Part shown: positions 5,839-64,000 of the stretch, in pieces | How positions within the stretch are numbered: position 1 is the first letter of the stretch | Layout of the letters: each line of letters starts with the position of its first letter | Made by a program: the position numbers and the translations under genes | Assembly (NCBI GenBank): GCA_049680185.1 | Contig: JBAUHI010000086.1 | Span: forward strand, 13,231 to 77,230 | Direction of reading: 5' to 3' | From: Gemmatimonadales bacterium | GTDB taxonomy: Bacteria > Gemmatimonadota > Gemmatimonadetes > Gemmatimonadales > GWC2-71-9 | Length of the DNA: 64,000 nucleotides | Notes under the pieces: generated by a model | What the model saw: the letters and a program-made list of their open reading frames with translations, nothing else | Database searches by the model: none | Told to the model about the DNA's origin: nothing

Positions 5839-6005
5839 GCGCGCAGGAACGGCACCGGGCGGGAGGATCCCCATCGGCGGACGGAAGTGCGGGTCGGAAA
5901 AGGACGAGCGGCAAGTGCGGCAGGGCGCGCGAACGAACGGGCGGAACACAGGCGAGTTGTGGAGCGACCAACGGAGACCGGTAGAGGCCAGCTCCTCTTC
6001 TCCCT

Positions 6006-6095
6006 CTGTCGTAGCGCGTTGTCTCTTGTGTCCTTTCCCCTCCTCCCCTCTTCTTCTCCTTCTCTCGTACTGTGTTGTCTCTTGTCGCTTGTCTC
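6006..6095. repeat. pyrimidine-rich copy of the dispersed GAGACAACGCAGTACGAGAG element
   Basis: CTCTCGTACTGTGTTGTCTC (6062-6081) is the reverse complement of the 20-mer core with 1 mismatch. A second partial core lies at 6006-6025. TTCCCCTCCTCCCCTC (6035-6050) is the complement of GAGGGGAGGAGGGGAA. It lies between the convergent AraC and MCP genes. Confidence 0.75.
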
Positions 6096-6111
6096 TTCTC
6101 CTCGGTCGCAA

Positions 6112-45027: not shown

Positions 45028-45810
45028 ATGCGCGGTTCGATGATGCTTCTGACGCTGGCCCTCGCGGCGGGGACCGCCGCACCGGCAGCGGCGCAGGATT
45101 TCAGCTGGAAGGGCACGTTGGCGGCGGGGAAGATGCTCGAGGTGAGAGGCGTGATCGGCGGGATCCACGCCAGTCTCGCCTCGGGAGATCAGATCGAGGT
45201 GACGGCGACCAAGCGGGGGCGCCACAGCGATCCCGCAGACGTGAAGATCCAGGTGGTGCCGTGGGATGGCGGGGTCACCATCTGTGCCGTCTACCCGACG
45301 CCGCGGCGCGCCCGCCACGAGAACGAGTGCGCCCCGCAAGGCGGCGGTTCGATGAGCACCGACAACAACGATGTGTCGGTGGAGTTCACGGTGAAGGTGC
45401 CTGCCAAGGTGAACTTCACCGGGGCCACGGTCAACGGGCAGGTGTCGGCAGACGGCCTGGGCGGCGATGCCGACCTGTCGACCGTCAACGGCGACGTATC
45501 AGTGAGCGCTGCCGGAGTGGTCGAGGCGACGACAGTGAACGGATCGATCGACGCCACGAGCGGGAAGAACAACTGGGAGGGAGCGCTCAAGTTCAACACC
45601 GTCAACGGCGGGATCACACTGCGGGTGCCCGATGGGCTGAATGCCGACCTGCGGGCGTCCACCGTCAACGGCAGGATCACCACCGACTTCCCGGTGACCG
45701 TCACGGGCTCGATGAGCCCGCGGAGCCTCAAGGGGAGGATCGGGACTGGCGGACGGGATCTCGACATGGAGACGGTGAACGGGTCGATCGAGATACGGAA
45801 GAAAGGCTAG
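45028..45810 (+). CDS. DUF4097-family beta-helical repeat protein (second paralogue)
   Basis: Signal peptide MRGSMMLLTLALAAGTAAPAAAQ. Repeats TVNGQVSA, TVNGDVSV, TVNGSIDA, TVNGGITL, TVNGRITT and TVNGSIEI. Confidence 0.8.
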   Translation: MRGSMMLLTLALAAGTAAPAAAQDFSWKGTLAAGKMLEVRGVIGGIHASLASGDQIEVTATKRGRHSDPADVKIQVVPWDGGVTICAVYPTPRRARHENECAPQGGGSMSTDNNDVSVEFTVKVPAKVNFTGATVNGQVSADGLGGDADLSTVNGDVSVSAAGVVEATTVNGSIDATSGKNNWEGALKFNTVNGGITLRVPDGLNADLRASTVNGRITTDFPVTVTGSMSPRSLKGRIGTGGRDLDMETVNGSIEIRKKG

Positions 45811-45891
45811 AGGCTGGAGGCTGGGGGAGGCTAGAGGCTAAAGGCCAAGAGCTGAGGGCTTGAAGCTGATAGCAGATAGCTGATAGCTGCC
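45805..45891. repeat. tandem heptamer array (13 units; GGCTNGA then AGCTGAT types)
   Basis: GGCTAGA GGCTGGA GGCTGGG (GGA) GGCTAGA GGCTAAA GGCCAAG AGCTGAG GGCTTGA AGCTGAT AGCAGAT AGCTGAT AGCTGCC. Unit 1 contains the TAG stop of the DUF4097 gene. Confidence 0.85.
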
Positions 45892-46277: not shown

Positions 46278-46536
46278 GGGGGTGGCGAGTGGCGGGTGGT
46301 GGGTGAAATGCGACGGGTGCCGGCTCCGGCGTGAAACCTAGCGGGATGACGTTCGGTGACACCCTTCCTCACAAGTAGAGAGGCTCCATCGCGGCCCCGC
46401 TCATGCGCGAGTGGACTCGCGGCTGCAACATATTGGAAAACACTGACCTGTGGGGGTCGCCTGCGGAGACCCTTTGCGGATGGCTCGGAGATTCAAGTGT
46501 GGGTCGCCGCAAGCGACCCCCACGCCTCATCGGAGC

Positions 46537-53270: not shown

Positions 53271-53285
53271 CGTCTGCGTCTTGAT

Positions 53286-53388
53286 CTGTCATCCCGAGCG
53301 TAGCGAGGGACCTACCTTGGCGAGCACGGCGCCATTGGCCCTACTCGATATCGGCAGGCAAGGTCCCTCGCTACGCTCGGGATGACAG
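53286..53388. repeat. perfect 28-bp inverted repeat (GTCATCCCGAGCGTAGCGAGGGACCT hairpin element)
   Basis: Left arm CTGTCATCCCGAGCGTAGCGAGGGACCT (53286-53313) is the exact reverse complement of the right arm (53361-53388). The loop is 47 nt. Confidence 0.85.
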
Positions 53389-53441
53389 GTCGTGGGTTCG
53401 TCCCTGTCCAGCCGCGCAACCCGCCACCCGTCACCCGCCAC

Positions 53442-53786: not shown

Positions 53787-53805
53787 TTTCGGGCTCCTTG
53801 GCCAA

Positions 53806-53886
53806 GGTGAACGGTCAGCGGTGAACGGGGGTGTCGGACGCATCGCCCTTCCAGGGTCCGTTCACTGTTCACTCTTCACCGTTCAC
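53806..53886. repeat. inverted GTGAACG/CGTTCAC heptamer blocks between copA and csoR
   Basis: GGTGAACGGTCAGCGGTGAACGGGGG faces CCGTTCACTGTTCACTCTTCACCGTTCAC. The right block overlaps the copA stop codon. Confidence 0.75.
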
Positions 53887-56200: not shown

Positions 56201-56377
56201 TCGGTGAACGGTGAAGGGTCAACGGGGCTTCGAAGTCCGTCATCCTGAGGCCTGAAGGGCCGAAGGATCGATCCGCCGACGAGCCGATCCTTCGCTCTGC
56301 TCAGGATGACGTTGCTCGTTTGAGATGACGGCCTGCTTCGGCCGTTCACCCTTGACCGTTCAGCGCTCACCGTTCAC
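56201..56377. repeat. composite nested palindromic element inside the cop operon
   Basis: Outer arms are heptamers: GGTGAACGGTGAAGGGTCAACGG (56201-56227 region) and CCGTTCACCCTTGACCGTTCAGCGCTCACCGTTCAC (56341-56377). The inner hairpin pairs GTCATCCTGAG (56239-56249) with CTCAGGATGAC (56300-56310). The core pairs CGAAGGATCG with CGATCCTTCG. Confidence 0.8.
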
Positions 56378-56965: not shown

Positions 56966-56982
56966 GGTTGGACTCCTCAAAA

Positions 56983-57052
56983 GGCTGGAGGCTGAGGGCT
57001 AGAGGCTCGCTGGTAGCTGGTAGCTGGTAGCTGGTAGCCAACCACCAACTCT
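56983..57052. repeat. tandem heptamer array (GGCTNNN x4, TGGTAGC x4, CAAC-type x2)
   Basis: GGCTGGA GGCTGAG GGCTAGA GGCTCGC TGGTAGC TGGTAGC TGGTAGC TGGTAGC CAACCAC CAACTCT. It lies between the predicted cop promoter and the copZ RBS. Confidence 0.85.
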
Positions 57053-59021: not shown

Positions 59022-59297
59022 TCGAGACACGAGGAAGGAGACAAGAGACAACGCAGATCGGTGCGGCGAGAAGAAGAGGGGAGGAGGCGAACGAGGCGAC
59101 ACGAGAAAGGAGACAACGCAGGTGGGGGCAGGGAGCGGAAGAGGTAGAGGAGGGGAACGGGAGAGCGGCATGAATTCTGATTTGCGTTCGCCTTTTCCCG
59201 TCTTCCCCCTCCTCCACCTCTGTCGGCCCTGTCCCGTCGTCCTCTCCCTCCCCTCTCGTACTGCGTTGTCTCGTTTCTCCTGTCTCTGCATTCTCAC
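59022..59297. repeat. about 275-bp strand-asymmetric inverted repeat built from the GAGACAACGCAG element
   Basis: The left half is purine-rich (GAGACAACGCAG at 59045 and 59110; GAGGGGAGGAGGCGAA at 59076-59091). The right half is pyrimidine-rich, with CTCTCGTACTGCGTTGTCTC at 59253-59272. The arms are imperfectly complementary around the centre near 59170-59190. Confidence 0.8.
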
Positions 59298-59298
59298 C

Positions 59299-59535
59299 TC
59301 ACTCCTCTCGCCTCCCCTCGTAGAACCTCACCTTCTCTGCCAGGCGCCTGATCCGGATGGCATCGGCCGGCTTGAGCCAGCCGGCTTCCTCACCGGTCCG
59401 CGCCCACTGCTCCGGCGGCGTACCTCGAAGCGCCGGGCACCCGCGGTGCGCGTAGCGGGCCAGCGCCTCGGCGAGTGCCTGGCGATAGTGGGGGAGCAGG
59501 AGTGCAGGGGTCGAGTCCACGGCGCAGTATGGCAT
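59299..59535 (-). CDS. hypothetical protein (78 aa)
   Basis: GC3-rich ORF MPYCAVDSTPALLLPHYRQALAEALARYAHRGCPAL... No recognisable motif and no clear RBS. Confidence 0.4.
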   Translation of the reverse strand: MPYCAVDSTPALLLPHYRQALAEALARYAHRGCPALRGTPPEQWARTGEEAGWLKPADAIRIRRLAEKVRFYEGRREE

Positions 59536-59591: not shown

Positions 59592-61046
59592 TCAGTCGGG
59601 GGCGCCGAGCGACTTGAAGAGCTGGTCGAGTTGGGCGCGGCGGGGGCTTCCGGCGGGGGGGAGGCGCCGGCTGGGCGGGTCGGTGGCCTTTTCAACGGTG
59701 AGCAGCGCACCGGTCGAGTCGATCAGGATCGCTACACGGGTGTCAGGGGTGCCGTTCGAGAGCACGAAGAGCCGAGCACCACCGGGGATGTACCGGGCCG
59801 ATGCATTCAGGGTGTCCCAGGTGGCAGTGCGCGGCCGGAAGACCGGAAGGGTCACCGACTGGGAATCGGCCAGAGTGCGCAGGACGGGAACGAGCTGCTC
59901 TTCCATGCCTTCATCGGCAATGGCCCAGAGCTTCTTCGGAACGTGCCAGCTGTGCGTTTGGGTGCCGGTGATATAGAGACTGTCGCCGTGGACTGCCGCG
60001 AGTGCGCTGGTATCTGTGGCACCGGGCGCGGTCCAGAGCGCCTGATACTGGACTGGAGTGGCGCCCGCGGTCACGGCGAGTGCGGTGCCCACCGCGCCGT
60101 CGTTGGTGGCGAGCCCTGATTCGATGGCCTGACCCACGGCGTTGACGGTGTGGAGCAGTACCGGCCCGGTCGTTACGGTCCACGAGGTGTCCCGCCCGGG
60201 GAGCGGCCTGGAAAGCACCTGGGCCCGCTCCGGTGCAATACGACCCCACGCGTCATCGGCGATCACACCCACGGGAATGGTATCGACCACTTTTTCCGCG
60301 GGCATCACACCCACGCCAGCGAGCTCGAGCTCTCGTCGGCGGGCCAGGAGTTCGCCGCGCTTGGGGTCGAGCCACCAGGTCTCGTGCATCGGGCCGGTGG
60401 CATCCACCTGATAGGTGGTCCCCGCGCTGGCGTCGACCCAATCCGACTGCCGATATCGCGCCACACCATCCACCTGCACGACCGTGGCGCTGGTGCCGAG
60501 CGTATCGGTGGCGCCCACAATGCGGTAGCCGGTGATGTGGGCGGAGAGGGATCGGGTGCCGGGGGCGGGCCAGCCGGGGGCCAGCGTGTCGCCCCAGGTT
60601 GCGCCGGAATCGAGCGCACCGGGAGGCACCGGCAGGCGGAGGAAGAGGGCGTAGCGATCGCGGGCCGAAGCGCTGTCAGGGGCGACCGCCACCACGTTGC
60701 CATGCTGATCGAGGCGCAGGGTGTCGGTGGTGACCGCGCGGTGGACGTCGAGTGCGGTAGTCCTGACGACAAGTGCATCGCCGTGGGGGGAGGGGACCCA
60801 GACAAGACGCGCGATCCGTGGCGCCGTGCCGGTCATTCGGGTGGTATCGGCACCGCGAACGAAATAGAGGGTCTGTGATTCGATGCCCTGGTACCAGGCG
60901 GGTTCCCTGGGCGGGTGGAGTTCGGGGGCCTGGGCGGACAGGGCGGGTGGAGCGAGTAAGACGGGTAGAACGGGTAAAACGGGTAGCGCGGGTGTCGCCG
61001 CGAATAGGAGCGCGCGGACGAAGAGTGAGGGCCGCGATCGCGACAT
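59592..61046 (-). CDS. hypothetical secreted protein (484 aa)
   Basis: I trimmed the start to ATG 61046 (MSRSRPSLFVRALLFAATPALPVLPVLPVLLAPPALSAQA, a signal peptide). The upstream extension would overlap the GNAT gene. No family recognised. Confidence 0.6.
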   Translation of the reverse strand: MSRSRPSLFVRALLFAATPALPVLPVLPVLLAPPALSAQAPELHPPREPAWYQGIESQTLYFVRGADTTRMTGTAPRIARLVWVPSPHGDALVVRTTALDVHRAVTTDTLRLDQHGNVVAVAPDSASARDRYALFLRLPVPPGALDSGATWGDTLAPGWPAPGTRSLSAHITGYRIVGATDTLGTSATVVQVDGVARYRQSDWVDASAGTTYQVDATGPMHETWWLDPKRGELLARRRELELAGVGVMPAEKVVDTIPVGVIADDAWGRIAPERAQVLSRPLPGRDTSWTVTTGPVLLHTVNAVGQAIESGLATNDGAVGTALAVTAGATPVQYQALWTAPGATDTSALAAVHGDSLYITGTQTHSWHVPKKLWAIADEGMEEQLVPVLRTLADSQSVTLPVFRPRTATWDTLNASARYIPGGARLFVLSNGTPDTRVAILIDSTGALLTVEKATDPPSRRLPPAGSPRRAQLDQLFKSLGAPD

Positions 61047-61730: not shown

Positions 61731-63463
<1,733 letters not shown>

Positions 63464-63464
<1 letters not shown>

Positions 63465-63670
63465 TGGCGATGCTCGACCTGCGCGTCCCCATCGGCTCCC
63501 TCCTGGCACTCATCGGCGTGCTCGTCGGCACCTACGGGCTGGCGCACGGCGCCGATCCGGCGATGCACCCGACGGGGATCCCGATCGTGTCCATCTGGGG
63601 AGCGGTGCTCTTCGTGGCGGGGTCGGCGTTCCTGGCGGGTGCCAAGTACCGGCCGTGGGGGCGGCGATGA
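63464..63670 (+). CDS. small two-TM membrane protein following the symporter
   Basis: MAMLDLRVPIGSLLALIGVLVGTYGLA...VSIWGAVLFVAGSAFLAGA. The ATG overlaps the symporter stop by 1 nt. Confidence 0.5.
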
Positions 63671-64000
63671 AGGCTGTGTTGGTAGCGGGGCTGCTGGTAG
63701 GCTATCAGCTATCAGCTATCGGCTATCAAGGGACTGCGAGCTATCGGCTATCGGCTATCAGCTACCTGCCGGGCAATGAGATCACGATCGGCGGCCCGCG
63801 CCACTCGCCACTCGCCACCGGGCGTGCCAAGGCACGCCCCGGCAGCCACACCTTCGCGATTGCCAAGGGGCATTTTCTCCTCGACAAGAAGCCGATCCAG
63901 CTCCTCTCCGGTGAGCTGCACTACACCCGGATCCCGCGAGAGTACTGGGCCAATCGGCTGGCGATGGCGAAGGCGATGGGACTGAACACCATCTCCACCT
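63667..64000 (+). CDS. glycoside hydrolase family 35 beta-galactosidase, N-terminal fragment (runs off window end)
   Basis: HFLLDKKPIQLLSGELHYTRIPREYWANRLAMAKAMGLNTIST matches the GH35 N-terminal core. The only in-frame canonical starts are ATG 63667, GTG 63676 and TTG 63679. It is not in the ORF track because there is no stop in the window. Confidence 0.8.
   Translation, partial: MKAVLVAGLLVGYQLSAIGYQGTASYRLSAISYLPGNEITIGGPRHSPLATGRAKARPGSHTFAIAKGHFLLDKKPIQLLSGELHYTRIPREYWANRLAMAKAMGLNTIST
63680..63821. repeat. heptamer arrays (TGGTAGC, CTATCAG/CTATCGG, CCACTCG) inside the GH35 5' region
   Basis: TGGTAGC (63680), TGGTAGG (63695), CTATCAG CTATCAG CTATCGG CTATCAA (63702-63729), CTATCGG CTATCGG CTATCAG CTACCTG (63741-63768), CCACTCG CCACTCG CCACCGG (63801-63821). 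Confidence 0.85.

Follow-up and report, generated by a model that had tools for sequence, protein, structure and literature searches.

Heptamer repeats in frame within the predicted signal-peptide leader of a GH35 beta-galactosidase gene in a Gemmatimonadales bacterium

We identified arrays of 7-nt repeats inside the translated 5′ leader of a GH35 beta-galactosidase gene at the 3′ end of a 64,000-nt stretch of DNA (hereafter, the window) from a Gemmatimonadales bacterium. The leader was an open, in-frame extension of the enzyme in every allele recovered, despite large differences in length and the presence of alleles with no repeats at all. We consider it likely that the arrays form a microsatellite-derived signal-peptide tail and disordered linker that is translated and kept in frame by selection. 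The window has a G+C content of 67%, and its best synteny matches were Gemmatimonadales MAGs.

Gene order and start of the GH35 gene

The 3′ end of the window holds three genes on one strand, an SSF symporter, a small ORF, and the GH35 ORF, and this synteny is kept in the loci L001, L002, L003, L286, L292, and L293. The features are as follows:

61731-63464, plus strand: sodium:solute symporter of the SSF family, 577 aa (Pfam PF00474, E = 2.8e-57; NCBIfam TIGR00813)
63464-63670, plus strand: small hydrophobic ORF, 68 aa, conserved 3′ of the SSF gene in most Gemmatimonadales loci
63847-64000, plus strand: first part of the GH35 catalytic domain (HTFAIAKGHFLLDKKP...), truncated where the window ends (Pfam PF01301, E = 7e-12)

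The symporter is the first gene of this conserved unit, and the SSF gene call on the same-species contig L288 was also 577 aa long. No Pfam or NCBIfam match was obtained for the 68-aa small ORF, the exact protein of which is present on two Logan contigs. The Pfam GH35 match on the window fragment begins at residue 70, and the full same-species GH35 protein (680 aa, on contig L289) carries PF01301, PF21317, and PF21467, with the ENEYG motif and the invariant Glu residues present in the GH35 alignment. The initial annotation had placed the GH35 core near 63850, in agreement with the conserved HTFAIAKGHF, which begins with the His codon at 63847.

Frame 1 is open from 63388, and 60 open codons separate ATG 63667 from His 63847. 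The in-frame canonical starts before the GH35 core are GTG 63655, ATG 63667, GTG 63676, and TTG 63679; the last three had been listed in the initial annotation as the only ones, which missed GTG 63655, a codon that falls within the small ORF. The overlap that it had described between ATG 63667 and the stop of the upstream small ORF (TGA 63668-63670) as ATGA was confirmed, and its translation of the leader was correct. No ATG, GTG, or TTG occurs in frame between 63679 and the GH35 core, and neither promoter- or terminator-like sites nor a significant Rfam element were found between the small ORF and the core. Judged from the sequence, GH35 translation starts at ATG 63667 and is coupled to the stop of the small ORF.

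Heptamer arrays in the leader

Between this start and the GH35 core, the leader is composed of the following features:

63667-63717, plus strand: Sec signal peptide predicted by a heuristic for the GH35 precursor, MKAVLVAGLLVGYQLSA, with its start ATG coupled as ATGA
63701-63728, plus strand: heptamer block 1, (GCTATCR) x4 = GCTATCA GCTATCA GCTATCG GCTATCA, translated as GYQLSAIGYQ
63729-63739, plus strand: 11-nt spacer AGGGACTGCGA between blocks 1 and 2
63740-63764, plus strand: heptamer block 2, (GCTATCR) x3.6 = GCTATCG GCTATCG GCTATCA GCTA, translated as SYRLSAISY
63765-63798, plus strand: nonrepeat part of the leader module (LPGNEITIGGPR), in a 129-nt stretch 90% identical to L001
63799-63818, plus strand: second heptamer family, (CGCCACT/CCACTCG) x2.9, found by TRF and translated as RHSPLAT
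63819-63846, plus strand: basic N-terminal tail of the mature enzyme, GRAKARPGS, common to repeat-free alleles

TRF identified two period-7 arrays. The one at 63701-63764 has 8.6 copies of the consensus GCTATCA with 75% matches, and the one at 63799-63818 has 2.9 copies of CGCCACT with 100% matches. The pattern GCTATCRGCTATCRGCTATC, with 1 mismatch allowed, had 5 matches in the window vs 0.00 in 100 dinucleotide shuffles. The presence of heptamer repeats inside the 5′ coding extension of the GH35 gene, as noted initially, is thus real by sequence, TRF, and shuffle test, and three blocks of a unit that is not a multiple of 3 lie within the ORF that begins at 63667. The two blocks of CTATCAG/CTATCGG also stood, but the count of eight units did not, as we identified 7 full GCTATCR units and one partial unit. 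Likewise, the leader had been described as encoded almost entirely by heptamers, but the arrays cover only 73 of its 180 nt (about 41%). The longest uninterrupted period-7 run in the window leader spans 20 nt, or 2.9 units, and the longest perfect runs in the other repeat-bearing alleles span 16-31 nt.

L001 carries 4 units matching block 1, and the 11-nt spacer is kept as GGGAACTGCGA in each of its 132-nt modules. A longer degenerate CCACNCG array was identified at the place corresponding to the second family in L002 and L292. In the window, the CCACTCG block sits just before the conserved basic tail of the mature protein, counterparts of which were identified in L290 (...RRGKPRPGS-HTF), P0007 (...KGRAKARP...), and L286 (...GGHAKAHPP...). 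Any frame of three heptamers (21 nt) translates to the 7-residue period YQLSAIS, and in the opposite orientation (TAGCTGA) every frame contains stops.

Predicted signal peptide and proposed linker

The only hydrophobic stretch of the leader lies 5′ of the repeats, and the only candidate signal peptide in the window leader is MKAVLVAGLLVG-YQLSA. It is predicted to comprise the n-region MK, the h-region AVLVAGLLVG, and the c-region YQLSA, with cleavage after LSA17; in the heuristic, the h-core had a mean Kyte-Doolittle value of 3.0, with one positive charge and a (-3,-1) site at LSA/I (the slash marks cleavage). By the simple (-3,-1) rule, signal peptidase could plausibly cut at LSA/I, at residue 17 or 19. 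The first GCTATCR units encode YQLSA and would therefore supply the c-region of the signal peptide. A similar layout was identified in L001, L002, L292, L003, and L293, so that six repeat-bearing alleles have a start, one positive charge, 9-11 hydrophobic residues, and then a GCTATCR-encoded G/S-YQLSAIS, and the same heuristic gave every allele a positively charged n-region followed by a hydrophobic core and a (-3,-1) site. A lipoprotein reading of the leader was rejected, as it contains no Cys and no lipobox.

About 75 GH35 orthologues from many phyla carry a signal peptide of 20-30 aa (Sec, some of TAT or lipobox type) that ends 0-6 residues before the conserved HxF, with the N-terminal signal peptide at the corresponding place in the orthologues, and the GH35 enzyme is therefore exported. 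The closest 25 proteins in a collection of 5.8 billion proteins also have a signal peptide just before HxF; the full-length same-species protein was used as the query for this search, and the 111-aa window fragment gave 2 matches only. From these sequences, the GH35 beta-galactosidase of the window is read as a Sec-exported enzyme. P0028 seemed to be a homologue lacking a signal peptide, but its start had been mis-called; an intact signal peptide lies upstream of the called start, and repeats are absent.

An AF2 model was built for the same-species protein P0004 with 25 homologues, and it was of moderate quality overall (mean pLDDT 63.9). Residues 5-17 formed a helix and residues 18-60 a coil with pLDDT of 27-53, and the fold, a TIM barrel, began at residue 61 with pLDDT of 85-96. 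No structure is thus predicted for the stretch of about 40 residues after the signal peptide, which may be a disordered N-terminal tail of the mature enzyme.

Leader alleles

We compared eight DNA alleles of the junction, namely the window, L001, L002, L003 (by synteny), L286, L290, L292, and L293, which differ in leader length from the start to the His codon as follows:

Window: 180 nt
L001: 525 nt
L002: 153 nt
L003: 276 nt
L286: 108 nt
L290: 99 nt
L292: 189 nt
L293: 144 nt

The leader is a multiple of 3 and free of stops in 8/8 DNA alleles (chance about (1/3)^7), and the start is coupled in the form ATGA, GTGA, or TGATG. L290, L292, and L293 were reached via predicted proteins, which may slightly favor in-frame alleles; an out-of-frame allele would still show as an N-terminally shortened match, as P0028 did with its mis-called start. 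No out-of-frame allele was identified among the 8 DNA alleles and 2 further close homologous proteins, both with intact signal peptides.

Sizes differ among alleles in steps of 42, 45, and 132 nt. L292 and L002 have 9 vs 3 heptamer units, a difference of 42 nt, in flanks 93% identical. The window module of about 130 nt is present four times in L001 at an exact 132-nt (44-codon) period, and the L003 leader holds a 45-nt unit in tandem more than three times. At positions 8030-8190 of L003, this 45-nt unit (…CGTCATCCTTCGCTTCGCTCAGGACAGGCTC…), which is related to palindromic intergenic elements of the window described below, runs in tandem and in frame inside the GH35 leader.

Repeat-free leaders were identified in L286, the relative whose flanks are closest to those of the window (89% identical DNA), in L290, whose mature gene is 96.5% identical to that of L001 at the DNA level, and in P0007, which is 81% identical to the protein of the window species. 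These three have a coupled start at the matching position, ordinary signal peptides, and zero heptamers; examples of such signal peptides are MKRRVVLLLVSLLTGSGLQA/QTKGGHAKAHPP... and MSRRVGLLLALLLAASGLWA/QAPARRGKPRPGS... In the flank phylogeny, leaders with and without repeats are intermixed, and the repeats were therefore gained, lost, or recombined more than once. A derived end of the small ORF (…ACGCGAAAGTGA; the alternative end is GGCGATGA) is common to two repeat-free alleles, which may favor leader-segment exchange between alleles.

Within the species, the leaders of the Logan contigs L288 and L289, from different sequencing runs, and of the NCBI contig behind P0004 are base-for-base the same as that of the window. 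Outside the leader, the GH35 genes of L288 and L289 differ by one amino acid, and Logan contigs of two runs continue unbroken across the arrays. The exact 81-nt leader pattern had no match among GTDB representative genome contigs, and a metagenome scan with a 21-mer from the GH35 core returned five loci, all unrelated. Outside the window, at about aa 575-625 of the L289 GH35 protein, we identified a second hypervariable low-complexity insertion near the C-terminal domain, which consists of tandem ADS.G..GARSAP-like repeats in P0007 and is short in L001 and L290.

Heptamer repeats elsewhere

Heptanucleotide repeats are an abundant class in prokaryotes. Across 0.85 Mb of Gemmatimonadales loci, perfect arrays of at least 3 copies numbered 36 for period 7 and 2-8 for periods 5, 6, 8, and 9, and 14 of the 63 TRF rows in the window had period 7. 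The other heptamer arrays in the window are intergenic, including members of the CCACTCG family at 53415-53441 and 46280-46305.

Outside this lineage, (CTATCAG)3 was identified in at least 120 species of many phyla, and the scrambled control (CATCTGA)3 gave at least 120 matches as well. The idea of CTATCAG as a special cross-phylum heptamer akin to TAACTGA was therefore dropped, and we claim neither a special unit nor kinship with TAACTGA. Among the roughly 120 matches listed, CTATCAG arrays were almost all intergenic or just 5′ of real starts, with one case, in the Patescibacteria MAG L166 (4161-4194), of (CTATCAG)4.9 in frame in the middle of a glycosyltransferase ORF (…MRFLDQLSAISYQLSALKRIPG…).

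Several further repeats were observed in the window. Adjacent arrays of (AGGCTAG)n and (AGCTGAT)n lie at 45804-45889 between what appear to be convergent ORFs, and the TAG of the first AGGCTAG unit is the codon at which the ORF at 45028-45810 stops; the AGCTGAT array (45864-45889), which is intergenic, has the stop-containing orientation of the GH35 leader unit. An orthologous intergenic array carries a different unit in every copy, (GCTGGTA)4.3 at 56982-57038 in the window vs (GCTGATA)6 at about 1470-1520 in L001, which by sequence comparison indicates whole-array turnover or concerted evolution. At the intergenic sites 1540-1672, 53795-53886, and 56202-56377, the GTGAACG/CGTTCAC family forms inverted array pairs around a variable center, and each site could therefore fold into a long imperfect hairpin. 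Palindromic intergenic elements, GTCATCC(T/C)GAG...CTC(A/G)GGATGAC, were identified at 56226-56320 and 53280-53400, and low-complexity intergenic blocks, purine-rich or pyrimidine-rich, at 59043-59300 and 5990-6100 (AGAAGAAGAGGGGAGGAGG... / CTTCCCCCTCCTCC...); two blocks of about 95 nt near 59069 and 59202 are absent from L001. A second tandem repeat in a signal peptide lies at 60954-60992 on the minus strand, in the gene at 59592-61046 (start 61046), where a 9-nt repeat (TRF 60944-60993) encodes PALPVLPVLPVLL in the leader MSRSRPSLFVRALLFAATPALPVLPVLPVLLAPPALSA/QAPE. The L001 orthologue of this gene is 6 codons (18 nt) shorter at the repeat.

Proposed origin of the leader

We propose that the arrays arose from the background of a lineage rich in intergenic heptamer microsatellites, and that GCTATCR and CCACTCG would have settled, in their stop-free orientation, between the signal-peptide h-region and the conserved N-terminus of the mature enzyme. 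There, the first GCTATCR units would serve as YQLSA in the c-region and probably provide the signal-peptidase site LSA/I, and the remaining 40 or so residues would make up a disordered tail at the N-terminus of the mature enzyme. The leader DNA would keep changing via slippage and unequal recombination. The enzyme needs its signal peptide, and so only length changes of 3n nt would survive, which makes the leader a probable hypervariable, frame-locked linker rather than a frequent switch.

This leader would be a further example of a known arrangement, in which tandem repeats enter a coding position that tolerates them and stay in frame. The repeats of Borg elements are alike in being fast-evolving tandem repeats in ORFs that occur in 3n multiples and encode low-complexity, probably disordered peptide (PMC9879509), but Borg units are themselves 3n, whereas the basic unit of the GH35 leader is 7 nt, so that its frame is kept only via 21-nt-equivalent or composite (42, 45, 132 nt) steps.

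Alternative explanations

The initial annotation had read the arrays as a candidate frameshift switch with the logic of a contingency locus driving phase variation. In a high-frequency switch of this kind, slippage of a single heptamer would flip the gene between an exported ON state and a frameshifted OFF state. We regard this as unlikely, although several features of the locus fit it. As in opa, hgp, and nanH3 (bioRxiv 10.1101/2020.09.16.300947; PMC9341677), nontriplet repeats immediately follow the signal-peptide core, and one-unit slippage would stop translation at TGA 63777-63779 or move it into frame 2. Unit number does change over evolutionary time, as between L002 and L292, and with an array peptide identical in all three frames, three separate arrays could compensate mutually. 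However, known switches are 22-58% ON, or have about half of assemblies OFF, whereas ON and OFF alleles were not found together here, with 8/8 DNA alleles in frame, the 2 further homologues intact, and the three same-species assemblies identical. Invariance of repeat number across strains had itself been named at the outset as evidence against a switch, and it was observed in those three assemblies; even the window and L001 have equal unit numbers (4 + 3.6 in the shared module) despite 32% synonymous-site divergence, unlike the orthologous intergenic array at 56982-57038, in which both unit and number changed between the two. The longest window run, at 2.9 units, falls at or below the threshold of 3 uninterrupted, perfect heptamer units that served as a permissive screen in H. 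influenzae (PMC2651432). In addition, the enzyme encoded is catabolic, and the bacterium lives free in soil. Proven heptamer switches have 13-38 units. A high-frequency on/off contingency switch is thus unsupported by the sequences compared.

The same differences emerge when the leader is set beside each established system. In Neisseria opa, CTCTT pentamers also lie within the sequence that encodes the leader peptide of an exported protein, and the units must sum to 3n (bioRxiv 10.1101/2020.09.16.300947), but opa tracts are long, perfect, and population-variable with ON and OFF alleles, whereas the GH35 leader has <3 perfect units per run, all alleles ON, and a copy number stable across assemblies. 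Gardnerella nanH3 is likewise a secreted glycoside hydrolase with a slippage-prone tract (poly-C) right behind the signal peptide, a position that makes start annotation difficult; about half of its assembled genomes are frameshifted and single colonies are of mixed length (bioRxiv 10.1101/2020.09.16.300947), whereas the GH35 leader is known from assemblies, all in frame. Non-3n repeats (CCAA) also occupy the 5′ part of the ORF of the exported Hgp proteins of Haemophilus influenzae, with 22-31% of isolates ON for each of hgpB and hgpC (PMC9341677), in contrast to 10/10 ON for the GH35 leader.

A different possibility is that the translated arrays also act at the DNA or RNA level, for example by binding a heptamer-reading protein or by modulating coupled translation. 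The leaders of the window and L001 differ by 11.7% at the DNA level vs 32% at 4-fold sites of the SSF gene, their changes are spread evenly across codon positions (10/8/17%), and they share an identical stretch of 46 nt. The even distribution of changes and the 46-nt identity are not the signature of ordinary protein-level constraint, and this conservation hints at DNA/RNA-level constraint or at repeat homogenization. The GCTATCR unit is also retained in lineages with flanks only 75-80% identical, and similar heptamer arrays often lie just 5′ of start codons in other phyla. Still, we doubt a DNA- or RNA-level role, since the leader has no excess of RNA structure (fold z = 0.22) and no Rfam match, the close relatives L286 and L290 are entirely without arrays, slippage-driven homogenization can mimic conservation, and the unit, with its scrambled control equally widespread, is not demonstrably special.

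A precedent for such a role comes from the TAACTGA direct repeats of Beggiatoaceae, cyanobacteria, and Bacteroidetes, for which a translational function was proposed (MacGregor 2015, PMC4679880). These, too, are 7-nt units, mostly intergenic, with several families per genome, and have one orientation with stops in all frames and another that can be translated; TAACTGA encodes LSVISYQ on its reverse strand, and the GH35-leader unit TCAGCTA, one base different, encodes LSAISYQ. They differ from the GH35 leader in that its translatable orientation is fixed inside a conserved gene in six or more lineages, where it contributes to a signal peptide.

Distinctly unlikely is a low-frequency switch, in which rare heptamer slippage uncouples the signal peptide from a catabolic beta-galactosidase in a soil bacterium. 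If it were true, the multi-array design and recombination with repeat-free leaders (in 96.5% identical backgrounds) would toggle or reset export, and phase variation would extend from host-adapted pathogens to carbohydrate use in Gemmatimonadota. Frame-shifted subpopulations, if deep sequencing revealed them, would raise the interest of the case.

The fallback of the initial annotation, that the repeats colonized a noncoding spacer and the enzyme starts at a noncanonical codon 3′ of 63818, is extremely improbable and is rejected by the comparative data, for although codon usage in the leader is atypical (GC3 of 72% vs 85-91% in neighboring genes) and matching repeat families are otherwise intergenic, the absence of canonical starts between 63679 and the core, the signal peptide of essentially all orthologues, which a near-core start would remove, the frame and openness kept in 8/8 alleles of differing length, and the equal coupled position at which repeat-free alleles begin all argue against it.

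Implications

Under the preferred reading of a repeat-derived, frame-locked signal-peptide tail and linker, the GH35 start is fixed at 63667 for annotation, and an N-terminus of low complexity built from repeats can be a true signal peptide and linker and not necessarily a mis-called start. By the same token, a non-3n repeat in a 5′ coding region need not be a contingency locus. In evolutionary terms, the leader would be a natural example of nontriplet microsatellites absorbed at the most tolerant coding position, the junction of signal peptide and mature enzyme, where selection admits just 3n length changes (steps of 42, 45, and 132 nt), and repeat-bearing and repeat-free leaders coexist in near-identical backgrounds.
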